A DNA stretch of 32,000 bases, taken from the NCBI RefSeq assembly GCF_000020025.1, contig NC_010631.1, positions 150,001-182,000 of the forward strand, read 5' to 3'. Within the stretch, counting starts at the first letter, position 1. Each line of letters begins with the position of its first letter. The notes below the pieces were generated by a model that saw only the letters and a program-made list of their open reading frames with translations, was not told the DNA's origin and did not search any database. The position numbers and the translations under genes are program-made. Shown here in pieces: positions 4,433 to 29,831 of the stretch. This DNA is from Nostoc punctiforme PCC 73102. Lineage in GTDB: Bacteria > Cyanobacteriota > Cyanobacteriia > Cyanobacteriales > Nostocaceae.

Positions 4433-4487
4433 GTTTTTAAAAGTTAGGGATTTCCAAGAAATAAATTATCTATTAAATAACACTAAT

Positions 4488-8319: not shown

Positions 8320-8407
8320 CAGTTTGAAACCATAAAGCAAGCAAGTTGCTCACATTATGCTTTCAGTGACAGATATCGCAGGACTCTCCTATATGGCGAA
8401 TGTATTA

Positions 8408-13050: not shown

Positions 13051-13078
13051 AACTGCACCTACTCCACTTCCATATTTT

Positions 13079-13111: not shown

Positions 13112-13218
13112 GAAAATAATATAGCACGTTAAACACAAAATAAGTAACCCTTATCTTTTATCCGATATAAACTACGATTAAAATACACGAACCCCAGTGT
13201 AGAGGAATAAAAAAGTTC

Positions 13219-13555
13219 TGTCGGTTTGCAGACTAAATGAAATTTGTGCGGACTAAGTGAAATTTTGTTGCAGACTAATTGAAAATCTGCTTGTGTAACC
13301 CTCATTCTTTCGTAATCCCAGAGCGTAGGCGTAGCCCGCCGTAGGCATCGCTACTTACAAAGTTTTGCTTCAAAGCCTTGTGCGGTAATAAATTGGGACG
13401 TTTTATGTCCATTTTGTGGAAAATTTCATTTAGTCTGCGAATTTAGGGGGAAAATTTCACTTAGTCCGCGAAAAAATTTCATTTAGTCTGCAACAAAGGT
13501 TCCTCAAACCCTTATTATTACGTTGAAAAAATTTCATTTAGTCTGCAAACGCACA
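13219..13555 (+). mobile_element. Non-autonomous mini Tn7-like element (MITE-like), copy 1
   Basis: Tips are TGTCGGTTTGCAGACTAAATGAAATTT and its inverted partner AAATTTCATTTAGTCTGCAAACGCACA (25 of 27 match). There are three direct 19-bp sites TGCrGACTAAnTGAAAwTy at 13227, 13247 and 13269, and four inverted copies at 13421, 13452, 13474 and 13529, which is the Tn7 3+4 end architecture. No ORF. The flanking duplication is GTTC, or AGTTC if the last A is counted as flank. Confidence 0.85.
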
Positions 13556-13649
13556 GTTCAACAATAAATAATAAAGTCCAACAATAAATAAAAAAGTTCT
13601 ACAATTTCTGGATGTGCATGGTCTGGGCAGATCCAGAAAGGTAAGCTTT

Positions 13650-14471
13650 ATGGCCAGAGGTAGGCAGGAGTGGACTCAAGCCAAGTTTGAACGCTACATC
13701 AAAGAAGGTCGCGGTCAAGGTAGTGGAGAGAAGTATAAGCCTTGGATCACTGTCTCCGATTTCTCCTCAATGGGCAGATCAGCAAGAAGCCCTGGTTGGA
13801 AGACCAATCGGGTGCATCATTTCTTATCAGACCATGAGCGGCGGCTGTTTTATCTGTTCGAGTGGTCAGATATTGTCGTAGATATCAGGGAGCAATTCCC
13901 CCTGCTCAACCTAGACTTATGTACGAGTATCGCTAGTGACATGGGAGTGAAATACCCCACTGACCCAGTTAGTGGTATACCTTACGTTTTAACTACTGAC
14001 TTCATGCTAACAGCCAATAAATCGGGTAAGTCAGTTCAAATTGCTCGAACAGTCAAACCATCTTCAGATTTGGAAAAAAAATCAGTAGCTGAGAAATTTG
14101 AGTTAGAAAGACGCTATTATGCTGACCAAAATATTGACTGGGGAATTGTAACAGAAAAAGAAATTCCCAGGCTTTTAGCTCTGAATATTGAGTGGATTCA
14201 TTCTTCCTACTCATTAGAAGCGACTACCGAAATGGCAGTTGAGGAACTACGAGGACTCTCAAGTATTTTAAAGTCTCGGCTCCAAAAAAGTAGTGCCACT
14301 ATCAACAAAGTGACAACAGCTTTAGACAGAGAAATGAATATAGAATCTGGGACATCACTAATGCTTTTTAAGCATCTGATTGCCACCAAAGAAATATTGA
14401 TGGATATGGAATCAACCAAAATATCTAGCTGTCCTTCAGTTCAAACAATTCAAAAAATTATTATTAAGTAA
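13650..14471 (+). CDS. tnsA: TnsA-like transposition endonuclease
   Basis: ORF 13614 (GTG)-14471; the ATG at 13650 (MARGRQEW) is preferred. YKPWITVSDFSSMGRS...VHHFLSDHERRLFYLFEWS...IREQFP...YVLTTDFML fits the TnsA N-terminal nuclease layout. It is the first gene after the element's end. Confidence 0.85.
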   Translation: MARGRQEWTQAKFERYIKEGRGQGSGEKYKPWITVSDFSSMGRSARSPGWKTNRVHHFLSDHERRLFYLFEWSDIVVDIREQFPLLNLDLCTSIASDMGVKYPTDPVSGIPYVLTTDFMLTANKSGKSVQIARTVKPSSDLEKKSVAEKFELERRYYADQNIDWGIVTEKEIPRLLALNIEWIHSSYSLEATTEMAVEELRGLSSILKSRLQKSSATINKVTTALDREMNIESGTSLMLFKHLIATKEILMDMESTKISSCPSVQTIQKIIIK

Positions 14472-14492
14472 TAGGGAATCAGGAAAAATTGA

Positions 14493-16721
14493 ATGAATAA
14501 TAATTTATTTGTCAACGACCTCATAGAATGGATAGACTCAGACCCTCCCAACTTGATTGAGAGAGTTCTGTGGATTGATTCTGGTTATAACATTGCCTTT
14601 GTTTTTGATATAAATGCCAAGAAAGGGTTTCCCGAAGCGAAAAAAGTTTCAGAAATAAGAGTTGCAATTCATACAGAACAAGCACTGAAGCTTAAACAAG
14701 ACCCTTGGGCAAGGCATTTGAGTGATGAAGATTTAACCAAGATACAAAAAGATTATAGAGAAAATGCTTGGTCACTAATTTCATCCCTGGTTGAAAAAGA
14801 ACCGGACATATACTATCGTTCGTCACGGGGTTCGCTTATCAAGCAGGTTGTTGAACAATATAACCAGGGGAGAAGTGAAAATAAATTAGTCGAAAAAACA
14901 GTTTATGAATATTTGAGAAGATTCTGGCAGAGAGGGAAAAATCAAAATGCGCTTTTACCTGACTATTCAAATTGTGGAGGTCTCGGAAAGCCCAAAAAAT
15001 GTGGAGAAAAGAAACGAGGAAGACCAAGAAAATATGCCCATGAACCAGAAATTGGTGTAGGGATTAATGTAACAGACGATGATCTGAAAATTTTTAGAAT
15101 TTCCATAGCCAAATTTTACAACAATGACAAACAGAATTCTTTGAGGACTACTTATAAATTAATGATTAGGGAATATTATTCATCAGATATTCGTTATGAC
15201 GAAAATGGGGTAAAAAAATCCCTATTAATTCCCCCCGAACTTAGGCCGACATTCACTCAATTGAAATATTGGTATGAAGTCGAACTATCAGATATCAAAA
15301 AAAGTATTACAGAACGAAAGGGAGCGAAAAGATTTGCTTTGGAGCATAGAGCAATTTTAGAAACATCTAAGATGGAAACCATTGGGCCCGGTTCTAGATA
15401 CCAAATTGATGCCACAATTGCAGATGTATATTTGGTTTCTAAATACAACTCTAACTGGATTATTGGCAGACCAGTAATTTATGTAATCATTGATGTTTTC
15501 AGCCGAATGATTGTGGGGGTTTATGTTGGTTTAGAGGGGCCTTCTTGGACAGGAGCAATGATGGCTCTAGCTAATGCAGCCACAGATAAAATACAGTTTT
15601 GTCAGGAATATGGCATTAATATTTCCTCTACAGAATGGCCTTGCCACCATCTGCCAGATGCAATTTTGGGCGACCGAGGCGAACTTGCAGGGATGGCAGT
15701 AGAGACATTAATCCCAAATCTCAATGTCCGAATTGAAAATGCTGCACCTTACCGTGCTGATTGGAAGGGTTTAGTAGAGAGGTACTTCCGTACAATTCAT
15801 GGTCATGTCAAACCATTTTTACCCGGTTATATAGACACAGATTTTAGACAAAGAGGGGGGCGAGACTATCGTCTTGATAGCAGAGTTAACATAGAGCAGT
15901 TTACTGAAATTATTATCCACTTAATTCGCTATCACAATAATCATCATTACCTGGCCAGTTATGATAGGGAAGAAATGATGATTACTGATAATGTAAATCC
16001 CATACCCATAGAATTATGGAAGTGGGGGATAGAAAATCGTTCTGGTAGACTCAGGACTTTTCCTGAAGATATAATCAAGCTAAATTTGATGCCAAATAAT
16101 AAAGCGACCATCACCGCTCGTGGCATCAAATTTAAGGGAATGTATTACAGTTGTGAGAAGGCATTGAAAGAATTCTGGTTTGAAAAAGCTAGAAGTAATT
16201 TGCTCTCCAAATCAGATAAATTATTAGATATTTCTTACGACTATCGCAAACCCAATTTTATCTATGTCCGCTCTCCTGATGGTAGAGATTTTGAGAAGTG
16301 CTTCCTTTTAGATCCAGAAGAGCGTTATTCTCAGAAAAATATACATGATATTGAATATTTACTCGCTTATGAAGAGTGGCTTTATCAGAAAAGTCAAGGC
16401 AATGAACTTCAAGCTTGTGTTGACTTAATAGCTGACATTGAAAGTGTTGTCAACAGAGCTAATGATTTAGCCTCTGTAACTGTTGATAATAGGGTAAGTG
16501 ATAACCAAAAAGTTGCTGGGATTAGGAGAAATAGAGCTTCAGAGAAGGCTAAACGACGCGACTATGAGGGGTTCGAGTTAGCTAAGAGAGAAACTCCTAT
16601 TCCTGAGACAGTTATGCCGAGCAAAAATTCTGACTCTAAAGAAAATAAATCATTACAGCCTGACCATTTGGAGCTTCTGAGAAAGAAGCGCCAGGAGCAT
16701 TTTAATGAACATAGAGAATGA
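14493..16721 (+). CDS. tnsB: TnsB-like DDE transposase
   Basis: 742 aa with an rve-type DDE core: YQIDATIADVYLV, VIYVIIDVFSRMIVGVYVG, ILGDRGELAG, and YRADWKGLVERYFRTIH (Mu/Tn7 family). Confidence 0.92.
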   Translation: MNNNLFVNDLIEWIDSDPPNLIERVLWIDSGYNIAFVFDINAKKGFPEAKKVSEIRVAIHTEQALKLKQDPWARHLSDEDLTKIQKDYRENAWSLISSLVEKEPDIYYRSSRGSLIKQVVEQYNQGRSENKLVEKTVYEYLRRFWQRGKNQNALLPDYSNCGGLGKPKKCGEKKRGRPRKYAHEPEIGVGINVTDDDLKIFRISIAKFYNNDKQNSLRTTYKLMIREYYSSDIRYDENGVKKSLLIPPELRPTFTQLKYWYEVELSDIKKSITERKGAKRFALEHRAILETSKMETIGPGSRYQIDATIADVYLVSKYNSNWIIGRPVIYVIIDVFSRMIVGVYVGLEGPSWTGAMMALANAATDKIQFCQEYGINISSTEWPCHHLPDAILGDRGELAGMAVETLIPNLNVRIENAAPYRADWKGLVERYFRTIHGHVKPFLPGYIDTDFRQRGGRDYRLDSRVNIEQFTEIIIHLIRYHNNHHYLASYDREEMMITDNVNPIPIELWKWGIENRSGRLRTFPEDIIKLNLMPNNKATITARGIKFKGMYYSCEKALKEFWFEKARSNLLSKSDKLLDISYDYRKPNFIYVRSPDGRDFEKCFLLDPEERYSQKNIHDIEYLLAYEEWLYQKSQGNELQACVDLIADIESVVNRANDLASVTVDNRVSDNQKVAGIRRNRASEKAKRRDYEGFELAKRETPIPETVMPSKNSDSKENKSLQPDHLELLRKKRQEHFNEHRE

Positions 16722-18381
16722 GTGGGAATGGGTTAAAATTCCCAACGGGGAATGGGCTGCTGTTGCTAAATACAGAGACCACAAGTTGTCTGAATATAAT
16801 ACAAATCCAATAATTCGCTCTCTTCCTCCTATCTTTTCTAGAGAGAAATTTGTTGAGTATGTGACACGACTTCCGACGTGCAAATCTTCAGAAAGAGAAC
16901 TAGAGCCTCAGTACAGATTTCACTGTATTGAGCGACTATCGAGATATTTTGACCCATTGAATAAAACCGTTGATTTACAACAGGTAGTTTGCGTATTAAT
17001 TATGCAAGGTTATCTGAGGCGAAATCCCTTGCAACCAGAATATGCACTGCGTAGCGGTCAAATTTATCAGGCGGTGCTTTCTGGAGGAGGTTTTAACTTA
17101 GAGGAGTATGTAGATGTTCCCACCTCGGCATCTGGGTTGACAATCATTGGGCCGTCAGGAATAGGCAAGACAACCAATCTCCTAAATATCCTCTCTTTAT
17201 ATCCCCAGGTGATTGTCCATCCAGCTCATAGTGTTTACCAAATTGTTTGGTTGAAAGTTGACTGTCCCCATGCCGGTTCTTTGAAGGGTTTGTGTATCGA
17301 CTTCTTCAGAGCTGTTGACAAATTACTCGGCACTAATAACTTCCAAAAATTTGGGGTAAAACGCAACTCTGAGGATTATATGCTGGCTCAAGTTGCCCAA
17401 ATTGCCCACACCCAACATTTAGGAGTTTTAGTTATCGATGAAATGCAAAATTTAGTAGCAGCCAGAAGAAATAGCTCCGAAATGTTGAATTTTTTGGTGA
17501 AAATGGACAATATTATTGGAGTCCCAGTAATTCGCGTTGGTACAAATGAGGCTTTCCCAATTCTTCAAGGTAATTTTAGAAATGCGAGAAGAGGTGTGGG
17601 AGAAGGGGGAGTAATTTGGGACAGGATGGAAAATAATCGGGAATGGAACTTTTTTATCGAAGGAATGTGGGAGTTTCAGTGGACAAAACAATATATACCG
17701 TTAACTGCAAATATTACCTCGGCTCTATATTATGAAAGCCAAGGAATTATTGATATCGTCATTAAACTCTATAAAATGGTGCAATGGAGAGCTATTGCTT
17801 TAGGGAGCGAAGTAATCACTGTTGACTTGATTCATGCTTGTGCTGCTGACGGTCTGCATCTAGTTAAACCAATGTTAGATGCTATTAGGTCTGGGGATGA
17901 GAAATGGATGATGAAATACAAAGATATTGCTCCATTGGACACAAATCTATACCGCAATAAGTGCTTAGATTCTCTTGAAGAAACAGATTTAGAAGAAGTG
18001 AGGAGATTAGCACGCTCATCACAGAGGATGGGTCACATATCAGCAACGCTACGTCATGTAATTATTGAACTGATTAATTTAGATGTTCCACCTGCTACTG
18101 CCAAGAGTTGTGCCGAAAAAGTTGTTACTCCTCATGGAGAAAATGCAGATAAAAAAGTGCTAATTAAAGAGGCTTATAAACTAGCTTTGCAATGCGGTAA
18201 TATTTCAACAGAGCCAGTTCAGCATCAAGAACGAAAAATAAAACTCCAACCGAAGTATCAGGAGAATGATATCCGAGTTATTGTTGAAAATGCGAAGAAA
18301 AATCAAACTCCAGCTTGTGAGGATTTGAAAGCTTTGGGGATTATTAAAGACCCACTCAAAGACTTTTTTATTGGTGAGTAG
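16705..18381 (+). CDS. tnsC: TnsC-like AAA+ ATPase
   Basis: 558 aa with Walker A IIGPSGIGKTT and Walker B LGVLVIDEMQNL. The start overlaps the tnsB stop by 17 nt. Confidence 0.9.
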   Translation: MNIENEWEWVKIPNGEWAAVAKYRDHKLSEYNTNPIIRSLPPIFSREKFVEYVTRLPTCKSSERELEPQYRFHCIERLSRYFDPLNKTVDLQQVVCVLIMQGYLRRNPLQPEYALRSGQIYQAVLSGGGFNLEEYVDVPTSASGLTIIGPSGIGKTTNLLNILSLYPQVIVHPAHSVYQIVWLKVDCPHAGSLKGLCIDFFRAVDKLLGTNNFQKFGVKRNSEDYMLAQVAQIAHTQHLGVLVIDEMQNLVAARRNSSEMLNFLVKMDNIIGVPVIRVGTNEAFPILQGNFRNARRGVGEGGVIWDRMENNREWNFFIEGMWEFQWTKQYIPLTANITSALYYESQGIIDIVIKLYKMVQWRAIALGSEVITVDLIHACAADGLHLVKPMLDAIRSGDEKWMMKYKDIAPLDTNLYRNKCLDSLEETDLEEVRRLARSSQRMGHISATLRHVIIELINLDVPPATAKSCAEKVVTPHGENADKKVLIKEAYKLALQCGNISTEPVQHQERKIKLQPKYQENDIRVIVENAKKNQTPACEDLKALGIIKDPLKDFFIGE

Positions 18382-18384
18382 TAT

Positions 18385-19722
18385 ATGCTCAGTTTTTTCC
18401 CTACGCCTTACCCAGATGAGATTTTATATAGCGTGTTTGCACGTTATCATGCCAGAAGTGGTAATATAAAGCCTGATGAAACGTTGCAAGAATTGTTCAA
18501 TTCCCGGAATATTATAGTTAGGCCGGACTTACCCTATAACTTAAGTTATTTAATTAAAAATCTTCCACTGCTCTCTCAACATACGTTAGAAAGTCTAATC
18601 CAAAAACATACACTGTACCCCATGTATGCAGTCTTTATGCCTGACAGCAAATCAGCTATTCTGGGTTACATGAAAGGAGAGTTGGGGACATATATTTATA
18701 GAGGAATAGCAAGCTCAGTTTATCTGCCAAAATATTTTAGGTTTTGTCCAAAATGCCTTTTTGAAAACTTGCATACATTTGGCGAGGCATATTGGCATCG
18801 ACTTCACCAAACACCTGGTGTTCTTGTCTGCACAATTCATGATGTTGTCTTAAACGATAGTATTGTACCTATCTGGAATAATCAGTGGTATCAAGTTGGT
18901 ATTGCTAGTTTGGAAAACTGTCCTATATCGAATGTAACGAAAAATTACAGTGAGTCCACTAAGGAGTTATTACGCCTAATTGCATCTGATATTGAGTGGT
19001 TAATGACCTGTGACTTCAAATCGCTTCCTTCTAAGGAATTAGATTGGTTTCATATCCAATATATAGTTTTATTGATTAAGAGGAATTTAGCGACTCTAGA
19101 CCGTCAGGTATATGAGCAAGGTTTACGACAGAAATTTTTGTCTTTTTATGGAAGTGAATTTCTTGAGGCTCTTGGTATAAATGTCAGTAACAATAACATA
19201 AATTTATTTAACATTTTTCGATTGCATTTGGAGGTTTTTGACCCGGTAATGCATCTGCTAATGATTAGATTTTTGAGGCATTCGCCTTCAACGTTTTTTG
19301 CTCGGAAATCTAAATATAAACCTTTTGGTAAGGGGCCTTGGCTTTGTCTAAATCCTGCTTGCGAACACTATCTCCATTCTGTGGTTACGAAGTTAGTGAT
19401 GCTTTTAAGCAATGATCTAGATTCGACCTATTCTTATATAAAAAATCCTATAGGGACTTTTGAGTGTGATTGCGGTTTTCAATATAGTAAGATTGGCGTG
19501 AATTTGACTAAAGTTGATAAGTTTCGATTTGAAAGAATCGTGACGTTTGGTCAATTATGGGAACAAAAGTATTTGGAATTAAATGTTGTTGATAGACTAA
19601 ATTTTCAGCAAGCTGCGTACAACCTTAGTTTTAATTATAGCAAGAGTCCAATGACTATGTTGCGTAAGCTAGAAGCTTTGTGGAAGTCTTTGAATGATAG
19701 TGTAGAAAAAGACGCCGGTTAA
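18385..19722 (+). CDS. tnsD: TnsD/TniQ-family target-selection protein
   Basis: 445 aa. The N-terminus FPTPYPDEILYSVFARYHARSG is the TniQ signature. A CCCH-type zinc finger follows (CPKC...C.IH). It starts 3 nt after the tnsC stop. Confidence 0.88.
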   Translation: MLSFFPTPYPDEILYSVFARYHARSGNIKPDETLQELFNSRNIIVRPDLPYNLSYLIKNLPLLSQHTLESLIQKHTLYPMYAVFMPDSKSAILGYMKGELGTYIYRGIASSVYLPKYFRFCPKCLFENLHTFGEAYWHRLHQTPGVLVCTIHDVVLNDSIVPIWNNQWYQVGIASLENCPISNVTKNYSESTKELLRLIASDIEWLMTCDFKSLPSKELDWFHIQYIVLLIKRNLATLDRQVYEQGLRQKFLSFYGSEFLEALGINVSNNNINLFNIFRLHLEVFDPVMHLLMIRFLRHSPSTFFARKSKYKPFGKGPWLCLNPACEHYLHSVVTKLVMLLSNDLDSTYSYIKNPIGTFECDCGFQYSKIGVNLTKVDKFRFERIVTFGQLWEQKYLELNVVDRLNFQQAAYNLSFNYSKSPMTMLRKLEALWKSLNDSVEKDAG

Positions 19723-19730
19723 TCAGACTC

Positions 19731-19904
19731 TATATTGTTGAACTTTTTTATTCAACTTTCTCGACCTGCGCTCTTCTACATTGGTAAACTGAACTCAACT
19801 GAGGACAGTTATTGTTCAACTTTATTTTTCTGGCATCTGTGATGGATAACCAAAAATTAAGGGTTGTAGCTCTTGAAATTGTTGAACTTTATTATTCCTC
19901 TACA
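19731..19904. repeat. Element A tniQ-distal end with repeated putative TnsB-binding sites
   Basis: ATTGTTsAACTTT-type motifs occur near 19736, 19811 and 19878, and the region ends in CCTCTACA. Confidence 0.8.
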
Positions 19905-19976
19905 CTTGATATACATGTGACTGTAACTGTGACTTACACCATAAGTTGTCCGTAACGGACAGCTTATGGTTAAAAA

Positions 19977-20684
19977 TTATCCAAAGTTTGTAGGCGGCAA
20001 AAATTGCGAGGGTTCTTTAGCAACCAGATCCTCGACATCATCGAACCACATAAACTGCCAAGTCAGTCTGTCTCTGCGATGAGAGGAAACATCTCCTATC
20101 AACAGATGCTGCCATGAATTTTCTGAGTTTTCAGCCACTACCTGTTCATCAAGGTTTTGGTTGATTCTAAAACCACCTAACCATAGATGACAGCTTGAGC
20201 AATATCCTGGACGAGAACATCTAGTCAACGGTGGAAACTGCTTGTCACAGTGAGGACACTGCTCAATCAGAGTTTGATGTTCGTGGTGGGGGCAAAATTT
20301 GATTGTGTTGACTAACCACAGCAGTGGATTGTAGATTATTCGATTCTGGGTACGCCAACTGGCGTAACACAATGGACACCAAGCTTGGTACAAGCGCAGA
20401 AAACTAAACTCAAAGGTCAAACTTGCCCACTTTAGGGGTGACAAATTAGCTAAATCTCGACGTAAAGTTAACTCCTCAAGAACCTGAATTAGAGTTGTAG
20501 CAAAAATACCTCTGATTTCATTTGCAGATGCTAAAGAGTGGTGAATTCCAAAAAAATTATTAATGATGTCTATGGGACTTGTTTGAGACATTTTTTGCCC
20601 CATCAAGGGAAGAATCTGAGACAAAATTAATTGTTCGGTAGTAGTAGAATGATGTTCAGCAAGACGAGCTACATACCCGCTCAA
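19977..20684 (-). pseudogene. tniQ: tniQ remnant of element B (N- and C-terminally truncated)
   Basis: It aligns to residues ~40-250 of the element-C TniQ (YVARLAEHHS..., WCPLCY, CPHH...CPHCDKQF, GYCSSCHLWLGG). The ~270 C-terminal residues are missing, and the stop lies 49 bp from the element tip. Confidence 0.8.
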
Positions 20685-21024: not shown

Positions 21025-23740
21025 AGCTCCTGTTGAGAGTACGGTTGGATTCGCCTGGGATTAATTTCTTGAGCCTCTAATTTATTTGGCAGTCTTAGTT
21101 CTTCTGTAATATTATTTTTAATATCGGCTAAATCTTCTTTAACAACAGATTGTGCTTGTTTCACTATTTTAGAAGACACAATTTGACGAACTCCAGTTGC
21201 TGCCAAATCTCGTAATCGTTGTATTTGTAAAGTCTCTTGAGCTTCGGCTGATTCTAGATACTGTGCTAAGTCCTTAGCCTTAATTGTGACTTTCTGGTTG
21301 TACTGCTTTTTCTGCTGACGTATTTCGATGCTAGCAAGCCGAATTTCTCGTTCAGAATGTCCTTGTAACGATGAATAATGTTGTGAAATACAACGCACCC
21401 AAGCATTTTTGACATAGGCATAAGCCGTACCCACATCCCAGGGATCATATCTAATAGGTACTTGGGTTCCTTCAACTTCAGGATGGAGAAAAGAATCATC
21501 TATTGACCAGTAGTAAATATGGTTAACTTTTACCCCAAGCTTTGGTATAACTTTGGCGCTTCCTTTTGGAGTTGATGGCAAAGTAAAAATCTGAAAATTT
21601 TCATCATTAATAATTCTTTGACCAAAGCGCATTCCACTTTGAGTTAAGCCCTTTTCAAATGCAACACATGGTGATTGTCCTAGTGCAGGATGTTCTCTCT
21701 GGTCATAAATTACATAAATATATTCACAAAAATACTCATATATTTCCGGTAACGTCCATACAGCTTGTGCCTTTGGATTATTCGTCTTATTCACTAAGCG
21801 AATTTGCTTTGTAATTTGGGTGTTTCCTTTCAGGTTGTAGAAGAATTCAGTATGACTGGTGCCAAAAAAACGTTCAATTATTGAACCAAATCTAGGACTA
21901 GCAACAGGGCGTTGTTTCTTTATACAACCAAATGCTGCTAAAAGAGTTTCAAAGTAAATACTGCCAAATTCTACACCGTTATCTACTACCAAAGTTTCTG
22001 GTAACCGCCCTAGTCTCTGTACGCAAATTCGTACACCATCATGCAGGAGCGATAGGACGGCGGGTCAAAAGTCAAATAGATAGCTAAAATACGCCGGGAA
22101 AAAGCATCAATCAAAACGGTTGCCCAAGGTCTACCCAAACAACATCCTGTCCTTTGGCAAACTAACTCAATATCTAACTCGGTATGGTCAATGTGACAAA
22201 TTTCAAAGGGACGACTTCCGTGGCAAGGTGTCGAGAACGTTAATTCATGATAAAACGAGCTTTTTTGGTAAGCTGCTCGATTTCCTTGCCTCTTACGAGT
22301 TTGTCTATGATCTGCTCTACTGTTGATCCGCTTGTAAAACGTAGTACGGCTGGGGCAAGGGTCTGTTTTTCCCGCTTTTTCCCATTCTCTTGCCAGAATA
22401 CCGTAAGTTGTCAGTTTATTTCTCTGTTTAAAATTCTCGTAATGCTGCTCAATAATTTTATCGATGAACTCCCAAGTTTGATCTGAAAATCGCTCAACAC
22501 GGTTTCCTTTGTCTTTACGATTTGGCAACAAACCAATGTAACCCCAACCATAGGTTTCCTCTGCGGAATGATATTTGGCTTTCCATCTGCGAATTGTTCG
22601 CTCAGACACAGGACTATTGGTTGGCGGATCTTTATGCAGATATGGTTCAATGATTTTCTGACGGTAGTTAGCTACGGCTAAGTCTTCTGGGCTAGCGCAT
22701 TTTAGCTGTTCCCAAATTTGAGTTGATTTTACTCCTTGAGCTTCAATGCCAGTAATTTCTTTTTGTGAAATTAGTGTTTCAAAGTCTGCATGGCTTAACC
22801 CAATTAGATGATTTTCACCTTGCAAAACAATTTTTTTCTCTCCAATCTGAATTACAGATAAACTTTTTCCATCCCAGAACACCGTTGCACCAACCACCAC
22901 ATCAATCTGTTGCCCCTTATCGAGGGTGGCAGCAGCCTTTTTAGACATGATTAAGTTATAAGCTTCTGCTACCTGCTGGCTACTAAACAGATGAACTTTT
23001 TCTGGTTCACTCAACCCTATGCCTTTCAAATCTACATATAACTGCTTTGTTGCAATCAAGGCATAAATATCATCTACCCAACTGGTACTTGTTGATGAGA
23101 GTAATTGTTTCAGGGTCATCCCCGGATTAGCTGTAACAGATTCAATAATTTTTGTCCTTGCTTCTGGATTAACTATATTCTCTTGGCTCAAGTAAACTCT
23201 GAGAAACTGATGGTTGCGGTAAGCAATCCAGTTTATTTCCTGATCTGTACGAAGGTGATAGTAAAGCCCCAATGATTGAACTTTAGTTTCTACCGGTGGA
23301 GCCTGCCATTTACCATTTTCGTTTTGTTGATACCTTGTGGGTTGTTTGTGAGTGAGTGTTTTGAGACGTTCGCTAGTTTTCCATTCTTCAAACCCTGCAC
23401 AGTTATGCCGAATCACTAAGAAATCAGGAATATGACTCGTCACCACCCTACGCCCGCTTTTCGACTCAAATGATATGCTTAGACGAACTGGTTGGTCATA
23501 GTACTCCAGAACATCTTCGTCGTTTTCGTACTTTACGATCGCAGGCAATTCTACTTTGTGGGACTCAAACTGAATCGTTTTTCCCATTTTGTGGCTTGGG
23601 TAGCTACCACAAACATTTTTCGTCCCGCCACCTACTTTCCTTACAGGCTCCGAACAACGGATTTGCTGTACAAATTCTTTTGTCGTCTCTGGTAAACCGA
23701 GCCGATGACACCATTGTTCAAATTCTTGGTCACTGAGCAT
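21018..23740 (-). pseudogene. tnsB: tnsAB-type transposase gene of element B, disrupted by a 1-nt frameshift
   Basis: ORFs 22010-23740 and 21018-21992 are colinear with the element-C protein. At about 22033 the frame breaks: ...CMMV then, in the -1 frame, RICVQRLGRLPETLVVDNGVEFG. Compared with element C (gtattaaga versus gtgtacgaa), one T appears to be missing. Confidence 0.85.
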
Positions 23741-24026
23741 ACAGAAATCTGTAACTTTCGGACTGTTTATGCTTGAATAATGAACTTTCGGTCACTTTAT
23801 CATTTCAAAACACTACTTTTACTGTTCGGCTACTAAACGTAATAATCCGCTTTTGGACTTCTATTTGTCACTTAAAGGATATTGTGGCCGTTTTTAAACC
23901 ATAAAGTGGCCGCAGTCATCTGAACTGGTAAGTATAAATATTTATATCAATAAAAGACTGTTTAACTGGCGAAAGCCTAGATTTGTGGTAAGAGCTTGTT
24001 GCGGCTTTAAAAGCTTGGGGGCCAAT

Positions 24027-26636
24027 ATGTTGAGCGACCAAGAGTTTAATGATTGGTGTCGCGGCGTAAATTTACCACAAGAGGCTAGGCAATTAATTTC
24101 CCAAATCCGTGCCTCTGAACCAATTCGGCGAGTCAAAAGCAGTGGTATAAATGTCCGGGGCGACTACGCCAGTCGCAAAATGGGAAAAACTATTCAATTT
24201 GAGTCCCATAAAATTGAATTGCCAGGTGTAGAGGAGTACGAAGAAGACGCAGATGTACTCGAATACTACGACCAAGCATATCAAATTACTCTAGAATTCC
24301 CCTCAAGCAGTGGGGAAATAATCAAAGCTTCGCATATACCAGACTTTTTCGTAATTCGGAAGCGGAGTGCAGGTTTTGAAGAGTGGAAACCAGAATCAAG
24401 ATTAGAAAAATTAGCAGCTAAACAATCACAACGTTATATGCGTTCAGAAGATGGGCAGTGGTTAAACCTGCCAGCAGTTGCTTATGCAGAAAAATTAGGA
24501 CTGTATTACCGAATTCGGTTAGATACAGAAATTGATTGGATTAAATACAGAAATCGACTATTTCTCAAAGCCTATACTACTGAAGATTACCAAATTGACC
24601 CAGAAATAGCTGAAAATTTGGTGAAGTTAATTAGCTTAAATCCGGGCATAAGTTATTGGGAAATGATTCATACTCAACAGAGCAATCCTGATGACATAAA
24701 TGCTTTAATAGCTACAAAAAAAATTTACATTAATTTGAGTGCCGCACCCTTAGCAGAGCCAGAAAAAGTACAGCTTTTCCGTGACCAAGAAATCGCGGTA
24801 GCTTATGTACAAATGATAAAATCGCAACCGAATAATGGAACGATTCTGAATATTTTAGATGTTAAACCCAATCAACTGGAACGTAAAACTCATAATCAAG
24901 TAAAAATGTCTCCAAAAGCAATGGAGCGTTTTTTGAGAGCTAGTCCTGAAGACTTGGCAGAAGCTAACCGAAGATATGAAGTAATTGAACCTTATCTTAA
25001 TGACAGTTATAGAGATAAAGAAACTGTTCCACAACGTACTATTCGCAGATGGAAGGCTAAGTTTATAGCAGCACAAAAGGCGTACAAATGTGGTTATATT
25101 GGGCTGCTAAATAACTCTAATGCTAGAGGCAATCGCTTACCCAGAATTTCTCAATCGTCTCAAGATTTCATTGACAAAATAATTGAAGAATATTATGAAA
25201 CTTTTCAACAAAGAAGCAAACTAGCTGTTTATGGAATTCTAGCAAGAGAATGGGAGAAAGCAGGTCTAACAGATAAGCTGCCTAGCTACGCTACATTTTG
25301 TTCTAGAATTCAACATCGTTCTGGTTATAGGCAAACAAAAAAACGTAAGGGAAACAGAGCAGCTTATCAACAATCTTTATTGTATTGGGAGTTGAAATTA
25401 ACCACACCATGTCATGGCGACCGTCCATTTGAGATAGCACACATTGACCATACGCAACTGGATATTGAGTTAGTATGCTCCCGAACAGGTTATCTTCTTG
25501 GTAGACCTTGGGCAACTCTGTTAATCGATGCTTACAGCCGACGTATTCTCGCAGTTTACCTAACTTTTGACGAGCCAAGCTACCGTAGTTGCATGATGGT
25601 ATTAAGAATCTGCGTACAGCGATTTGAGAAATTACCAGAGACAATAGTTGTTGACGGTGGGACAGAATTTAGTAGTACATACTTTGAGACCTTGTTAGCG
25701 GCTTTTGAATGTACCAAAAAGCAGCGACCAGCTGCGAAAGCCAGATTTGGTTCAATTATTGAACGTATTTTTGGAACTACAAATACAGAGTTTTTTTATA
25801 ATCTTAGAGGCAACACTCAAATTACTAAGAATGTCCGCCAAGTCACGAAATCAAATAATCCCAAAAATCAAGCTGTTTGGACACTAGATCAACTCTACGA
25901 AAACTTTTGTTCATATTGTTACGAATTCTATGATTGCAGAGAACATCCAACATTAGGACAAAGCCCACGTCAAACTTTTATGTCAGGGCTAAATTCAAGT
26001 GGTTATCGCCCTCAGAAACAGATTATTTATGATGATAATTTTAAGATTTTTACCTTACCTTCTACACCTAAAGGAACTGCAAAAGTTCAACCAAGTAGAG
26101 GCGTGAAAATTAATTATCTCTACTATTGGTCAATTGATGATTCGTTCATAAGACCAGAAATTGAAGGAACTAATGTACCTATTCGTTACGACCCTTTTGA
26201 TATGGGGACTGCTTATGCTTACGTTAAGGGACGTTGGATACGCTGTATTTCTGAACATTACAAATCCTTCCAAAATCGTTCCGAAAAAGAAGTGAACATA
26301 GCCAGCACACAATTACGTCGAAAAAGGCAGAAACACGCTCAAAGAATTACTCTATCTGCCCAAGAAAAAGCTACATATTTAGAAGGAACTGAAGCCCAAG
26401 AAACTTTGTTATTACAACGCTTACATGATTTAGCACAACAAGATATTTGGGTTTTAATTGAAAAAAGCTCAGTTATTGAAAGTAAATTAAGTAAACACAA
26501 TTATTCAGCTAATGTTCAAGATGTAGATAAAAATATTTTGGCAGGTTCAGAAAGCATTAAAAAGCCAAAATCATCAGCAAAAAAATTAATAGATTTAACC
26601 AAAATAGAAGCTTACAATACAGAGGAGCTATGGTAA
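24027..26636 (+). CDS. tnsB: Transposase with TnsA-like nuclease N-terminal domain fused to a TnsB-like DDE domain
   Basis: I take the start at ATG 24027 (MLSDQEF, as in the element-B homolog). The N-terminal region QFESHKIELP...VLEYYDQ...SHIPDFFVIRKRSAGFEEWK has an E...PDF...ExK layout. The DDE core is AHIDHTQLD, LLIDAYSRRILAVYLTF, VVDGGTEFSS. Confidence 0.9.
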   Translation: MLSDQEFNDWCRGVNLPQEARQLISQIRASEPIRRVKSSGINVRGDYASRKMGKTIQFESHKIELPGVEEYEEDADVLEYYDQAYQITLEFPSSSGEIIKASHIPDFFVIRKRSAGFEEWKPESRLEKLAAKQSQRYMRSEDGQWLNLPAVAYAEKLGLYYRIRLDTEIDWIKYRNRLFLKAYTTEDYQIDPEIAENLVKLISLNPGISYWEMIHTQQSNPDDINALIATKKIYINLSAAPLAEPEKVQLFRDQEIAVAYVQMIKSQPNNGTILNILDVKPNQLERKTHNQVKMSPKAMERFLRASPEDLAEANRRYEVIEPYLNDSYRDKETVPQRTIRRWKAKFIAAQKAYKCGYIGLLNNSNARGNRLPRISQSSQDFIDKIIEEYYETFQQRSKLAVYGILAREWEKAGLTDKLPSYATFCSRIQHRSGYRQTKKRKGNRAAYQQSLLYWELKLTTPCHGDRPFEIAHIDHTQLDIELVCSRTGYLLGRPWATLLIDAYSRRILAVYLTFDEPSYRSCMMVLRICVQRFEKLPETIVVDGGTEFSSTYFETLLAAFECTKKQRPAAKARFGSIIERIFGTTNTEFFYNLRGNTQITKNVRQVTKSNNPKNQAVWTLDQLYENFCSYCYEFYDCREHPTLGQSPRQTFMSGLNSSGYRPQKQIIYDDNFKIFTLPSTPKGTAKVQPSRGVKINYLYYWSIDDSFIRPEIEGTNVPIRYDPFDMGTAYAYVKGRWIRCISEHYKSFQNRSEKEVNIASTQLRRKRQKHAQRITLSAQEKATYLEGTEAQETLLLQRLHDLAQQDIWVLIEKSSVIESKLSKHNYSANVQDVDKNILAGSESIKKPKSSAKKLIDLTKIEAYNTEELW

Positions 26637-27769
26637 AAATTCAGTCGCACTCTTTTCCAGAAGAACTTCTCTTACAGCCGAACGAAATTAAAACTGATTA
26701 TTTCAAAAGTATCACTATTCCACATCAAAGGCTCAAACAAGCCTTAGATACTTTATTAATTAATATTCTGGAGCCAGCTGACACTTTAGTATTTTTAGTT
26801 TTTGGTGTGACTGGTGTAGGAAAAACAACCTTACGCTTGCGTCTGGAAAATCTGCTAAATTACGAATTTCTCCCCTCATTACGCCAAAATCCTGGTCAAA
26901 TTGCTGTTGCTGGTATTGAAGCTATTCCAACAGAACAAGGAAAGTTTAGCTATAAAGATTATTACACTCGCGCCCTAGAATCCCTTCAGGAAGTTTTGAT
27001 TGAATACAAAATTGATTATGAAATTCCTCACGGTGAGGTAAAGGATTTGGGGTTGCTAAATCGGGCTTACCGCCAAGATTCGCCCGCATTACGCCGAGCA
27101 ATGGAAAAAGCATTTCGTTATCGTCAGGTAAAAGCTTTTACTGTAGACGAGGCACAGCATTTATTTATGATGGCAGGCGGACACCAGATGTTACAGCAAA
27201 TGAACTGGATTAAGTCTATTGCTAATCTTACTGGTACAGTACATATTTTATTTGGAACTTATGAACTGCTTAACTGTCCTACCTTGAATGGGCAAATAGG
27301 GCGGCGTAGCGAAGATATTCACCTGTTACCTTACCAAGCTGATAACCCAGAAGATATTGCTGAATTTATTAGAGTAATTAGAACTTTTCAACGCCACATT
27401 CCGCTTGTACAAGAACCAAAATTAGAACAACACTATGAGTATCTTTTTTCTGGCTCAGTTGGTTGTGTGGGGCTATTGAAGAATTGGTTAACTCGTTCTT
27501 TGAGAGTTGCCTATTCTGAAGAAGCTCGGACTCTTAATAGCAAACATCTTAAATTAGGTGCTTTTTCTGCATCTCGTATCAACAAAATTAAGGAAGAAGC
27601 ACAACAGGGATTTAAACGCTTTCAAGAAGAATCCAGTTTTTTTGAGCGGCAATATTCAACAGAACATGGAATAAAAATGCCAGCCAAAAATTCCCTACTC
27701 AAAAAAGGTCGTGTTGGACAAAGAAAACCTAAAAGAGATGATGTAGGGGTAAATTCAGATGATGACTAA
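26630..27769 (+). CDS. tnsC: TnsC/TniB-like AAA+ ATPase
   Basis: 379 aa with Walker A FGVTGVGKTTL and Walker B AFTVDEAQHL. The start overlaps the upstream stop (ATGGTAA). Confidence 0.9.
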   Translation: MVKIQSHSFPEELLLQPNEIKTDYFKSITIPHQRLKQALDTLLINILEPADTLVFLVFGVTGVGKTTLRLRLENLLNYEFLPSLRQNPGQIAVAGIEAIPTEQGKFSYKDYYTRALESLQEVLIEYKIDYEIPHGEVKDLGLLNRAYRQDSPALRRAMEKAFRYRQVKAFTVDEAQHLFMMAGGHQMLQQMNWIKSIANLTGTVHILFGTYELLNCPTLNGQIGRRSEDIHLLPYQADNPEDIAEFIRVIRTFQRHIPLVQEPKLEQHYEYLFSGSVGCVGLLKNWLTRSLRVAYSEEARTLNSKHLKLGAFSASRINKIKEEAQQGFKRFQEESSFFERQYSTEHGIKMPAKNSLLKKGRVGQRKPKRDDVGVNSDDD

Positions 27770-29345
27770 CATGGCGGTTAACGATGAATTGTGGCTCAAA
27801 GACCCAGAATTTACTCCCAGTCCTAGCCGGTTGTTTCATCTGGAACCGATTGGACTTGGTACTTGTTATGTTGAAAGTCTGACTAGCTATGTTGCTCGTC
27901 TAGCCGCAGCTCATAGCGTATTGCCTGGAACTTTATTGGCTAGAGAGATAAAACCAATAGTTGGGCATAACCATACTACCAATCCCTTGAATTCTAAAAG
28001 TATCGTAAGTTTGTATGGACAAGCTTCTGTAAAAGCTTTAAACGGAACACAAATTGGAGCTAAACAACTGGTTTTTGCTCTAGAAATATTGACAAAACGT
28101 ACTGACTTACAGTTTTTGACAATGCTACCTTGGGCAAAAGTCTTCCCAGTTTTGGGATTGCTCAAGCATTCTCATGCTTGGTGTCCTTATTGCTATCAAG
28201 ACTGGTTAAATAATCAACAAGTCATTTATTCACCTCTGCTGTGGGCTTTGAAACCAGCTAACATTTGTCCCATCCATTATCGATTTTTAGAATCAAAATG
28301 TCCTCACTGTGACCTTGAATTTTTACACCTGTGGCATAACTCACGACCTGGATTTTGTCTGAAATGTGGTGGTTGGTTGGGGATGAACTATGAAGTATCT
28401 TTGCCAGATAAGAGATTGTTCGAGGAGATACCCAATTTACAGCAAGAGATTTGGATAGTTAAGACTTTAGGAGATTTAATTGCTCAAGCTCCTGAATTTC
28501 CTTGTCCACCTCCAAGAGAGACTATTAAAACAATCCTAGAAGCTTACGTCTATCAATATACTCAAGGTAATGTTTCCGCTTTTGGTCGTTGGCTTGGGTT
28601 ATCGAGATATGAAATTCTACATTGGTATTCAGGTGTAGCCATCCCAAATTTAGATAAACTTTTGAAAATCTGCTACGCCTTATCAACTAATCTTGTCGAT
28701 TTTCTTCAACTTAAAATACTACCTCTTACTCTTAAGCAGCTAGTTTCTCTACCTGCTCCTAAACAGAAAAAATTATCATCACAGTCTGCTTTAGTTACTT
28801 CAAATAGTAGTCCTAAGTGCGAACGAGTTATTCAGGCGATGCAACTAGCTCAAGAAGAAGAACCACCTCCTTCTTTAACTCAATTAGCTGTTCGTTTAGG
28901 ATTCAAAACTCCTAGTAGTTTAACTGCTTGCTCAAAATCTTTATCAGCATCTTTGGCTACTAGATATAGTGAATATCAACAGCAGCTAAGATTTTTACAC
29001 ATCAGAGACATACTTGAATTAGCTTTGTTTAGCGACGAGTATCCACCACCTTCTCTAAGAAAAATAGCTAAGAGAACTGGTATTGGTTTGGCTACTTTCT
29101 ACCACTATTGCCCTATTGTGTGCCATGCTATTTCTTTACGCTATAAAGATTACCGCAAATTCGTCCATAAACTAGCTATTGAGCAAGGCTGTCGAGAAGT
29201 ACGCCAACTCGCTTCAGTACTTCATGCACAAGGCATTACCCCTACTGCTAAAAATCTCAGAAAATTTATGCCTCATCCCTCTTTGCTGTGGCAGGCTGAG
29301 GTAATTGATGTTTTAAGGCAGATAAGACTGGATCTTTCACAGTAA
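27759..29345 (+). CDS. tniQ: TniQ/TnsD-family target-selection protein
   Basis: 528 aa. TniQ N-terminus (ESLTSYVARLAAAHS), zinc-finger cysteines (WCPYCY, CPIH, CPHCD, CLKCGGW) and a long helical C-terminal half. It overlaps the tnsC stop by 11 nt. Confidence 0.88.
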   Translation: MMTNMAVNDELWLKDPEFTPSPSRLFHLEPIGLGTCYVESLTSYVARLAAAHSVLPGTLLAREIKPIVGHNHTTNPLNSKSIVSLYGQASVKALNGTQIGAKQLVFALEILTKRTDLQFLTMLPWAKVFPVLGLLKHSHAWCPYCYQDWLNNQQVIYSPLLWALKPANICPIHYRFLESKCPHCDLEFLHLWHNSRPGFCLKCGGWLGMNYEVSLPDKRLFEEIPNLQQEIWIVKTLGDLIAQAPEFPCPPPRETIKTILEAYVYQYTQGNVSAFGRWLGLSRYEILHWYSGVAIPNLDKLLKICYALSTNLVDFLQLKILPLTLKQLVSLPAPKQKKLSSQSALVTSNSSPKCERVIQAMQLAQEEEPPPSLTQLAVRLGFKTPSSLTACSKSLSASLATRYSEYQQQLRFLHIRDILELALFSDEYPPPSLRKIAKRTGIGLATFYHYCPIVCHAISLRYKDYRKFVHKLAIEQGCREVRQLASVLHAQGITPTAKNLRKFMPHPSLLWQAEVIDVLRQIRLDLSQ

Positions 29346-29494
29346 ATCTTATTTATTCGCCTTTCTCTAAGGTTTTACTACTGCGGCCACTTTATGCTTT
29401 AAAAACGGCCACAATATCCTTTAAGTGACACTATTGCGGACAACTTATGGTTTCAAAAACGGACAGCTTATGGTGTAAGTCACAACCAACATGC

Positions 29495-29831
29495 TGTCGG
29501 TTTGCAGACTAAATGAAATTTGTGCGGACTAAGTGAAATTTTGTTGCAGACTAATTGAAAATCTGCTTGTGTAACCCTCATTCTTTCGTAATCCCAGAGC
29601 GTAGGCGTAGCCCGCCGTAGGCATCGCTACTTACAAAGTTTTGCTTCAAAGCCTTGTGCGGTAATAAATTGGGACGTTTTATGTCCATTTTGTGGAAAAT
29701 TTCATTTAGTCTGCGAATTTAGGGGGAAAATTTCACTTAGTCCGCGAAAAAATTTCATTTAGTCTGCAACAAAGGTTCCTCAAACCCTTATTATTACGTT
29801 GAAAAAATTTCATTTAGTCTGCAAACGCACA
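29495..29831 (+). mobile_element. Non-autonomous mini Tn7-like element (MITE-like), copy 2
   Basis: By eye it is identical over all 337 bp to 13219-13555 and in the same orientation. It is flanked by ATGC on both sides. It lies 10 bp outside the tip of element B. Confidence 0.85.

Follow-up and report, generated by a model that had tools for sequence, protein, structure and literature searches.

Four Tn7-like elements are piled up in a 32,000-bp stretch of Nostoc punctiforme PCC 73102 DNA (contig NC_010631.1, positions 150,001 to 182,000; hereafter the window), with tips lying 10-54 bp apart, and the locus raises the question of whether the end of one transposon serves as the target of another, or whether all of them have used a single hotspot. 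The elements are A, B, C and a mini-element present in two copies (337 bp each, 100% identity). Tn7-like elements are studied for their precise target choice, and they provide the chassis of programmable CRISPR-guided integrases. From the analysis described below, we consider it probable that two mechanisms have acted jointly, targeting of foreign ends by the lineage of C and a shared landing pad for A, B and the mini-element.

Layout of the stacked elements

All four tip sequences were found as inverted pairs (Table 1) at the places where a previous sequence-only reading had reported a pile of Tn7-like tips. The interval of 23 bp between A and B (19905-19927) was confirmed; it consists of 11 bp of landing-pad sequence and a 12-bp tip remnant of a fifth element. 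Mini-element copy 1, reported at 21 bp inside the tip of A, is an insertion 17 bp into this tip (21 bp with the duplication), as judged from the A-type ends without interruption at loci L015 and L090. Copy 2 does lie 10 bp outside B, but next to the tip at 29484, the same one in which C sits, and not next to the other tip as had been supposed. The window contains no tRNA genes and no Rfam families. The earlier view that no host site is visible is nevertheless wrong, as a conserved att-like motif is present at 13148-13178.

Tips of the TGT...ACA type and subterminal repeat arrays are present in A, B, C and F, the small Tn7-like family of which the mini-element is a non-autonomous derivative. 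Pfam matches to the DDE transposase TnsB (rve and Mu-transposase C-terminal domain) were obtained for A, B, C and an autonomous F, and those to AAA_22/TniB and TniQ for A, C and F and, as fragments, for B, while the TnsA domain is clear in A, B and F. B is degraded in the window, but its relatives of 91-98% identity on plasmids of HK-01 and UHCC 0926 are annotated with full-length tns genes. An exact-sequence look-up of the TnsA of A matched no record.

Table 1. Features of the stacked elements and of the landing pad (window coordinates)
Feature	Position	Strand	Basis
Element D, C-type end of tniQ-side type, extending leftwards	8271..8319	+	~85-92% identity to C-type ends elsewhere
E-type tip TGTCACTGAAAGCATAATGTGAGC, terminal 52 bp, host of D	8320..8371	-	Tip match
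Pad, left part; core motif CCCTTATCTTTTATCCGATATAAACTACGAT at 13148-13178	13117..13197	+	Present in 13 replicons, fixed tip distances
Element A, apparently complete (full-length ORFs, no stops)	13198..19904	+	Pfam, inverted tips TGTAGAGGAATAA
Mini-element copy 1, in tnsA-side end of A	13219..13555	+	GTTC duplication 13215-13218 and 13556-13559
A TnsA, separate	13614-14471		Pfam
A TnsB	14493-16721		Pfam
A TnsC	16705-18381		Pfam
A TnsD	18385-19722		Pfam
Pad fragment cttgatataca, between A and B	19905..19915	+	Collinear with pad in pNsp_a, pNsp_b, N6
H-type tip remnant (TGTGACTGTAAC), 12 bp, directly before B tip	19916..19927	+	Full H-type end known
Element B, degraded, fused-TnsAB-clade Tn7-like	19928..29484	-	Pfam, inverted tips TGTGACTTACACC
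B TniQ fragment	19977-20684		Pfam
B TnsC fragment	20656-21024		Pfam
B TnsB fragment, C-terminal	21018-21992		Pfam
B TnsA-like ORF	22010-23740		Pfam
C left target-site duplication CTATT, 5 bp	23861..23865		Read from sequence
Element C, compact Tn7-like, fused-TnsAB clade, no cargo	23866..29430	+	Pfam domains, inverted tips TGTCACTTAAAGG
C transposase gene, 883 aa	23985-26636		Pfam
C TnsC gene	26630-27769		Pfam
C TnsD-like TniQ gene, 528 aa	27759..29345	+	Pfam TniQ 1.4e-15, weak HTH_26
C right target-site duplication CTATT	29431..29435		Read from sequence
B tnsAB-proximal end, terminal 49 bp, two transposase-binding repeats	29436..29484	-	Inverted repeat of B's other tip
Pad fragment accaacATGC, between B tip and mini-element copy 2	29485..29494	+	Collinear with other replicons
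Mini-element copy 2, at pad ATGC site	29495..29831	+	ATGC duplication 29491-29494 and 29832-29835
Pad, right part (ATGCgatcgc...gcatgttggcaacggaata...)	29832..30052	+	86-88% identity to pNsp_a, pNsp_b

Insertion sites of element C and its relatives

Three tns ORFs occupy element C (5565 bp) but for non-coding stretches of just 119 bp and 85 bp, which leaves no space for a guide RNA; with no Rfam match in the window either, a CRISPR-associated transposon (CAST) carrying its own Cas effector and guide RNA or CRISPR array was ruled out. No Pfam match to TnsA was obtained for C at E<=0.01, and the database record of an 869-aa homologue carries a weak PF08722 only. For the TnsD-like TniQ of C, the AlphaFold model (pLDDT 77.5) gave in Foldseek, as its best solved match, 8v32_J of a TnsD-TnsC-DNA complex (E 2.7e-26, 31% identity, 518 columns), and on this predicted structure the protein is a full-length TnsD-type selector with a TniQ core plus a DNA-binding region at the C terminus. 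The CTATT duplication around C is perfect, and 5-bp target duplications were also read at L017 (ACTGC) and around a B-like mini-element in L015 (ACGAT). Since B-type ends without insertion (Nostoc HK-01, UHCC 0926) run uninterrupted across the site, with CTACT once, C is placed 49 bp (54 bp counting the duplication) inside the tip of B, in accordance with the first reading of this junction, and the terminal 49 bp of B is separated from the remaining B by the insertion.

Copies of C with 97-98% identity are present in other Nostoc. As a census of the C-type lineage, we collected C-type tips across many genomes and metagenomes and scanned their 61 distinct flanks for the foreign-tip motif with a shuffled control. 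The motif was found at offset 52-54 in 25 of the 61 flanks; shuffling gave 0.67 on average and 3 at most. After removal by eye of one likely false match (L129) and addition by eye of four flanks, a foreign Tn7-like tip stands 52-54 bp from the C-type tip in 28 of 61 (52 bp, n = 8; 53 bp, n = 14; 54 bp, n = 6). The 28 flanks include at least 20 different host ends, and A, F and C types are absent among these. The sole conserved part of the flanks is the terminal 24 bp of the host, at a distance of about 29-53 bp from the C-type tip. The next 60 bp past the host tip show no conservation (mean information 0.12 bit) and no tRNA was found there, and an att site common to C-type elements and hosts in that region was therefore rejected. 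The second repeat of the host ends occurs, by eye, in both direct and inverted form, indicating that only the terminal site is common to all of them. End-targeting by element C and its relatives is strongly supported by this set of observations; in the literature searched, we found no description of Tn7-like transposon ends as chosen targets.

The same position is kept by close relatives. A copy with a TniQ identical to that of C lies 53 bp inside a different tip, and genome loci with 68-97% TniQ identity lie 52-54 bp inside five further tips. The subfamily with 47-50% TniQ identity is heterogeneous, with a tip at 33, 51, 52 or 75 bp or with none, and relatives at 32-38% identity adjoin tRNA genes. 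A second nested pair was found in the window beyond the range of the sequence-only reading, where the end of element D lies 52 bp inside an E-type tip at 8371, with the same geometry as C in B. A pNsp_c copy with subterminal sequence near-identical to D lies in a different host tip, and an end related to the E-type host of D adjoins a tRNA gene in L022.

Among left-end flanks with gene assignment, 9 of 13 have the tniQ-side end toward the host tip; among right-end flanks, 2 of 6 have the tnsAB-side end toward it. The reversed cases are the C-type L113 and L127 and a relative of 47% identity (L015); L011 and L094 have no tip on the expected side. These exceptions in orientation may come from inversion between copies. 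For the host ends in L012, L014 and L017, no partner tip was present within those loci. Two candidate recognition sequences were examined and set aside. An ACTGT(T)CG-like stretch in the host interior, on the other side of C, is at 40 bp in B and at 31 bp in the host of L017. Mimicry by host tips (GGTTCAAATCACA) of the tRNA T-loop, which the tRNA-targeting relatives read, is unsupported and is kept as a lead; the match is on the opposite strand, and a same-strand match needs a shift of 4-6 bp that differs between tRNAs (L036, L048).

We propose that the lineage of C consists of compact fused-TnsAB Tn7-like transposons with a retargeted long TnsD-type selector, the target of which may have shifted from the tRNA genes used by relatives to the transposase-binding site at the end of other transposons in the same broad clade. 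The selector would bind the last ~24 bp of a foreign end, with the consensus GGcCA..TTATGGTT.AAGTCACA, the terminal 49 bp of B being the putative recognition target in the window, and the bound selector would recruit the TnsC and the transposase of C. Insertion would then take place 47-49 bp inside the foreign tip, just past the second binding repeat and usually with the tniQ-side end toward the tip, so that the host transposon is split and C is carried within it, while C-type ends would be spared.

In this scheme the foreign end is presumably read by the selector of C rather than by a transposase. As the conserved host sequence also binds the transposases of the hosts, conservation by itself cannot separate recognition by TnsD from recognition of a protein-bound end, and the targeting by C-type elements could be real with a transposase as the reader, either the host TnsAB on its own end or the TnsAB of C by cross-binding. 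The TnsC of C would in that case assemble against the bound transposase, and the TnsD-like protein would not be the sequence reader. The resemblance of C's own tip (ATATCCTTTAAGTGACA) to the host sequence, the nature of this sequence as a transposase-binding site and the insertion of C precisely where the second binding repeat ends on its inner side are in line with such a readout. We nevertheless regard it as unlikely, because a target-bound transposase normally repels Tn7-like insertion (target immunity; PMC11406308), and because several hosts look degraded or are mini-elements (the tns fragments of B; the B-like mini-element in L015), so that a cognate bound transposase is not assured. In addition, C retains a full TnsD-type selector and the left-end geometry of its sequence-reading relatives, and the orientation of the second repeat makes, by eye, no difference. 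Sequence recognition by the TnsD-like protein fits the target sensing of C better than bound TnsB or bent DNA.

A probable landing pad of A, B and the mini-element

A single uninterrupted sequence in pNsp_a, pNsp_b and N6 is collinear with the window flanks of A, B and mini-element copy 2. This pad is intergenic and conserved in 13 Nostocales replicons; it has two direct TTATCYMCGAT repeats and adjoins a tyrosine-integrase/XisHI module. In 9 configurations with five different intervening sequences, the innermost (last-arrived) tip is at +38 to +44 from the pad core, and its distance to the foreign tip ranges between 0 and 79 bp, on either the inner or the outer side. The core is therefore the probable att recognition sequence for B, F and H on its right side and for E on its left side. 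The full H-type end TGTGACTGTAACCATAAGTTTGCCG, to which the 12-bp remnant before B belongs, is present in pn1 of UHCC 0926, Tolypothrix 7601 and PCC 7120 alpha. Nesting at the pad was confirmed by matching duplications, GTTC in the window and CAGA in C052, but for several tip remnants nothing continues on the opposite side, and later deletions or recombination must be assumed.

Duplications of family F are 4 bp long in five cases (GTTC, ATGC, TTTA, TACA and CAGA). The ATGC site of the pad is empty in pNPM1 of Nostoc N6, identifying copy 2 as an insertion, and in pNsp_a and pNsp_b it holds mini-element relatives of 82-85% identity with no B adjoining. F elements were found off the pad too (N6). 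An autonomous F relative on an HK-01 plasmid encodes TnsA-like, TnsB, TniB and a 270-aa TniQ; no evident DNA-binding domain that could read the pad was found in the small TniQs of B, E and F. Matching 5-bp duplications were absent for A (flanks CCCAG/CTTGA) and for B (flanks GTAAC/ACCAA; none in pn2 or HK-01 either), a lack that we attribute to recombination between copies.

B, H and F would insert with their tip 38-44 bp from the core motif, which would survive each insertion, so that a later family ends up in or beside the tip of the foreign resident already there. As the tip distance would be set from the core whatever DNA intervenes, and as the spacings of the families differ by a few bp, newcomers should land inside the residents' tips and not cleanly beside them. 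This rule accounts for copy 1 in A and for B in the 12-bp remnant tip. The tip of A, at +19 from the core in the window, fits no distance rule; in L015 and L090, where it is placed 16-18 bp inside an E tip, an A-type tip stands 50-56 bp away from the core's opposite edge. These positions are not brought into agreement by the quasi-palindrome that the core contains.

The sequence-only reading offered two explanations, each of which holds for part of the pile. Its proposal that transposon ends are the targets holds for C, with 28 of 61 C-type flanks near foreign tips, but is not supported for A, B and the mini-element, where it fails by the reading's own refuting condition, since copies sit at an ordinary att site in positions that follow the pad core; for these the alternative, one hotspot, applies. 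A general attraction, by which all four families sense the bound transposase or bent DNA of foreign ends and insert in or beside them, would account for the many tip-in-tip and tip-to-tip junctions among A, B, E, F and H types on several replicons, for example the A-type tip inside the E tip, F and B tips separated by 7 bp (HK-01) and one H tip lying 21 bp within another. We consider it improbable, however, since positions at the pad track the pad motif (38-44 bp) and not the foreign tip, F mini-elements occupy the ATGC site of two plasmids that lack foreign tips within 20-100 bp of it, the A-in-E junction of L015 and L090 is probably one inherited event in view of the identical gene order, and C-type elements use one end class only, passing over the A and F ends that lie a few kb from them. 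That there is no targeting at all, and that scattered insertions survived only in dispensable DNA such as dead transposon ends, is very improbable even though transposon interiors are known safe havens in which mobile elements accumulate (PMC8649781), because selection cannot yield a 3-bp-wide peak (52-54 bp) in 28 unrelated contexts or the 38-44 bp rule of the pad, and cargo regions and other intergenic DNA would be equally safe.

Relation to known target systems

Members of the cyanobacterial fused-TnsAB clade have their TnsD motif 40-50 bp past the left end (PMC11837452). With the tRNA- and CRISPR-array-targeting members of this clade (McCAST/PmcCAST relatives; Hsieh & Peters, PMC9881144; Mob DNA 2025, PMC11837452), C shares the predicted fused TnsAB, the TnsC, the long TnsD-like TniQ, the 5-bp duplication and a motif ~40-50 bp past the tniQ-side end. 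It differs in that its target is the terminal transposase-binding site of a transposon, not a host gene or CRISPR repeat, and in that it uses many different target sequences and splits another mobile element.

Tn5053 and Tn402, the 'res site hunters', are described in the accounts cited as lacking TnsA, carrying a resolvase and needing a resolvase-occupied res (Minakhina et al. 1999; Petrovski & Stanisich 2010; cited in PMC11406308). As far as these accounts go, they are, like C, TniQ-bearing Tn7 relatives aiming at a functional site of other mobile elements, with transposons nested in transposons and plasmids as the outcome, whereas C has a predicted fused TnsA-TnsB, a TnsD-like selector and no resolvase, and its target is a transposon end. 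A Tn5053-type identity is ruled out for the elements of the window by the TnsA domains (clear in A, B and F) and by the lack of a resolvase gene in A, B, C and F. The pad-using B, E and F, with small TniQ and a pad next to an integrase gene, may be the closer analogue of the res hunters. A tentative possibility, put forward for its two parts together, is a layered system of parasites with two target classes yet to be described, in which C-type elements are obligate hyperparasites, their TnsD reading the transposase-binding tip, disabling the host transposon and travelling inside it, and in which the small-TniQ families B, E, F and H converge on the pad because they sense a protein bound to it, by analogy with the res hunters at resolvase-bound res.

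The stacking of A, B and the mini-element resembles the tandem occupation of attTn7-type sites, where target immunity works against the same element alone and insertion spares the recognised sequence (PMC11406308). In both, insertion takes place at a distance from the recognition sequence and leaves it intact, and unrelated families follow one another at the same site; the pad differs in being a plasmid-borne, non-genic motif common to at least four families. It offers a model of unrelated families stacking at one site, and is a candidate plasmid-specific att site in Nostocales.

If the selector of C did switch its target, leaving tRNA genes for the ends of rival transposons, these ends would form a new target class beside conserved genes, res sites, CRISPR repeats and RNA guides, and the C lineage would represent transposon-on-transposon parasitism with a defined recognition site of ~24 bp, for which 20 or more natural target variants would provide material for decoding selector recognition. 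For annotation, automated calling of element boundaries will be misled where nested ends lie 50 bp from each other.

Elements of the window and the evidence for insertion

The four tip sequences named in the sequence-only reading were all recovered as inverted pairs, in the positions it had assigned to them, and the insertions it described are real, as judged from target duplications at C and at both mini-element copies together with uninterrupted or empty counterparts elsewhere. Element C is flanked on both sides by a perfect CTATT duplication, and C-less B-type elements in plasmids of Nostoc HK-01 and UHCC 0926 are continuous across its insertion point. Mini-element copy 1 interrupts the end of A with a GTTC duplication, an intact A-type end being present at loci L015 and L090, and copy 2 carries an ATGC duplication, its empty site, ccaacATGCgatcgc, being found in Nostoc N6 plasmid pNPM1. 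The 23-bp gap between A and B was also confirmed; of these, 11 bp are pad sequence (the pad is the plasmid landing site described below) and the other 12 bp remain from a fifth tip, of H type (a family known by its ends). Copy 2 had been assigned to the other tip of B, and this requires correction: it adjoins the same B tip that holds C. A further nested pair was detected near the left of the window.

Features of the window
Feature	Coordinates	Orientation	Content
CHAT-protease genes	223-8066		three consecutive large genes (459, 948, 1224 aa), two with long TPR arrays
Nested pair	8271-8371		C-type end (8271-8319) 52 bp inside another tip
Tandem heptamers	13062-13110		CTTCCGA/CCTCCGA
Pad core	13148-13178		CCCTTATCTTTTATCCGATATAAACTACGAT, two direct TTATCYMCGAT repeats
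Element A	13198-19904		separate TnsA, TnsB, TnsC; TnsD-domain protein
Mini-element copy 1	13219-13555		337 bp, identical to copy 2
Element B	19928-29484	reversed	fragments only: fused TnsA-TnsB, TnsC, TniQ
Element C	23866-29430		filled by three genes: 883-aa transposase, TnsC, 528-aa TniQ-family protein
Mini-element copy 2	29495-29831		337 bp, identical to copy 1
IS4 N-terminal fragment	31011-31376
Histidine-kinase ATPase domain	31430-31972		truncated

No tRNA gene or Rfam family was found in the window, and HIP1 sites (GCGATCGC) are present in its sequence. The CHAT-protease genes lie directly left of the C-type end of the nested pair and may be cargo of that C-type element or of its host (the element whose tip contains the insertion). 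A Nostoc punctiforme NIES-2108 contig shares 2.2 kb of element C at 99.96-100% identity, and with the HIP1 sites this gives the sequence a cyanobacterial, Nostoc-like appearance.

Placement of C-type elements in foreign tips

The sequence-only reading had offered, as one of two hypotheses, that these families select foreign transposon ends. This holds for one family of the four, that of C, and fails for the other three. On a contig encoding an identical TniQ protein, the C tip is followed by 53 bp ending at a different Tn7-like tip, and at four loci with TniQ identity of 68-97% (L010, L012, L014 and L017, the last with an ACTGC duplication) the C-type element lies 52-54 bp inside yet another tip. 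Species-representative genomes scanned with the TniQ alignment yielded 79 loci, and 44 more came from metagenomes scanned for the C-type tip, the pooled census comprising 61 distinct outward flanks. In 25 of these a loosely defined terminal motif ended at offset 52-54, against an average of 0.67 and never more than 3 in shuffled flanks, and each other offset gave at most one match. After inspection by eye, with L129 removed as likely false and four cases missed by the motif added, 28 flanks remained, at 52 bp (n=8), 53 bp (n=14) and 54 bp (n=6); plasmid copies added more cases at 50, 52 and 53 bp. Since each element has two ends, of which usually one faces a host tip, 28 of 61 flanks means that most of these elements reside in foreign ends. 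Placement of the C lineage is very probably targeted. None of the 28 hosts had an A-, F- or C-type tip (F being the family of the mini-element).

On alignment, conservation among the host ends is confined to the last ~24 bp (consensus GGcCA..TTATGGTT.AAGTCACA), the terminal site to which transposases of the fused-TnsAB clade bind; a second repeat, examined by eye, is either direct or inverted, depending on the host. The 60 bp outside the host tips are unconserved (mean 0.12 bit) and carry no tRNA, which rules out any att site held in common beyond the host elements.

The TniQ-family protein of C (model pLDDT 77.5) has as its best solved match 8v32_J, from a TnsD-TnsC-DNA complex, over the full length with 31% identity (E 2.7e-26). 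More distant TniQ relatives (32-38% identity) adjoin tRNA genes, with the tniQ-side end towards the tRNA. For this cyanobacterial clade a 2025 paper reports a spacing of 40-50 bp between the left end and the TnsD-recognised motif outside it, in tRNA-targeting elements as well as in a sister family whose target has become CRISPR repeats (PMC11837452). The host terminal site spans ~29-53 bp beyond the tniQ-side end of C, the same geometry. Because of the fold match, the tRNA-adjacent relatives and the matching left-end geometry, we consider the TnsD-like protein a reasonably likely reader of the foreign tip; such a selector would place C 47-49 bp inside that tip. Alternatively, what C senses could be a transposase bound to the foreign end. 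A direct reading of the tip by the selector remains our preferred view.

The orientation of C is biased, not absolute: of the left-end flanks assigned by their genes, 9 of 13 face a tip, in contrast to 2 of 6 right-end flanks. Mini-C copies at L110 and L120 have tips on both flanks and L011 has host-interior sequence on both; the three resemble reciprocal inversion products formed between copies, and such inversion would also account for the orientation exceptions.

TnsD-directed targeting would take a new form in the C lineage. The three nearest known systems are its tRNA- and CRISPR-array-targeting relatives, from which it differs in target while sharing machinery and geometry; the res hunters of the Tn5053 type, which likewise aim at a functional site of another element, with different machinery; and ordinary tandem att-site use, taken up below for the pad. 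In the literature searched, including surveys of cyanobacterial Tn7-like elements, target selectors and cargo, no description was found of Tn7-like elements targeting Tn7-like ends.

Several further observations concern C-type relatives. Non-autonomous B-type and C-type derivatives of ~200-370 bp occur frequently in Nostoc genomes and metagenomes (L015 6059-11890; L090 3053-3419; L103, L110, L120, L128, L137), some mini-C copies having foreign tips 52-53 bp off both flanks. On a Gloeothece verrucosa PCC 7822 plasmid (L149 7001-12400) a C-type end adjoins a TniQ gene and a type I CRISPR-Cas operon (cas5, devR, cas8a1, cas6), and may mark a CRISPR-associated relative. Selector relatives in Anaerolineales, Chloroflexia and Chloroflexota MAGs (left-end flanks of L079, L081, L085) lie ~35-45 bp from a conserved hairpin, GGGTGAGGGGGGCACCC, apparently another att site.

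A shared landing pad for the other families

The window flanks of A, B and mini-element copy 2 join into a sequence that is contiguous in plasmids pNsp_a and pNsp_b and in N6 pNPM1. The pad core was found in 13 Nostocales replicons (the window and 12 others), usually beside a tyrosine-integrase module, accompanied either by XisH/XisI plus a four-helix-bundle gene or by an HNH gene.

Innermost tip at the pad, measured from the end of the core
Replicon	Tip	Position	Intervening DNA
Window today	F (mini-element copy 1)	+40	21 bp of A's tip
Window minus A	B	+42	12-bp H remnant
pNsp_b	F	+42	native pad
UHCC 0926 pn1 and pn2	B	+42	diverged pad sequence; no foreign tip
HK-01	B	+38	unrelated sequence; no foreign tip
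PCC 7120 alpha	F	+42	9 bp of H tip
Nodularia	F	+44	truncated B-type end
Tolypothrix	H	+44	21 bp of another H tip
C052	F	+42	14 bp of another F tip; CAGA duplication; outer element continues

As innermost tips fall at +38 to +44 across differing intervening DNA, position follows the pad motif and not the resident tip. For A, B and the mini-element, the alternative raised in the sequence-only reading, a single permissive hotspot, is right once sharpened to an att motif that the families share and insert beside at a fixed spacing. The recognised sequence is kept after insertion and immunity is limited to the same element (PMC11406308), so that unrelated families can succeed one another at the pad, and small spacing differences between families would leave newcomers inside the tips of residents. 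Such stacking, explained by ordinary tandem att-site use, accounts for mini-element copy 1 in A, for B in the H remnant, for the proximity of A and B and for the head-to-head B/F junctions in the window and HK-01. On the other side of the pad, ten replicons have TnsAB-clade tips abutting at ~33 bp from the core, a site that is empty in the window. No rule was found for A, whose tip lies at +19 from the core. The pad users B, E (a further Tn7-like family) and F all carry small TniQ proteins of 270-305 aa without an extra domain, which, together with the adjoining integrase module, suggests that what they sense may be a pad-bound protein.

In both the window and the HK-01 plasmid (L144 5008-5040), the tandem heptamers separate the four-helix-bundle gene from the pad. 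Right of the pad (29836-30393) the window matches the ATCC 53789 plasmids (L089/L090) to ~30052 and again at 30222-30393, and lacks the hypothetical gene and mechanosensitive-channel gene that those plasmids carry between the two stretches; the IS4 and histidine-kinase fragments follow rightwards.

Family F and B-type elements

The mini-element is a derivative of the small Tn7-like family F, of which an autonomous member in the HK-01 plasmid encodes a TnsA-like protein, TnsB, TniB and a 270-aa TniQ. The usual Tn7-like duplication is 5 bp; those of F were 4 bp in all five cases (GTTC, ATGC, TTTA, TACA, CAGA; window copies, L091 3082-8137, L140, L090). A B-like mini-element in L015 has an ACGAT duplication. 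Full-length B-type elements showed no matching duplication in three replicons (window 19923-19927 vs 29485-29489; L093; L144/L091), and the B element of UHCC 0926 pn2 has XisH on one side and the four-helix-bundle gene on the other, an arrangement that differs from the window; the two observations suggest rearrangement by recombination between copies.
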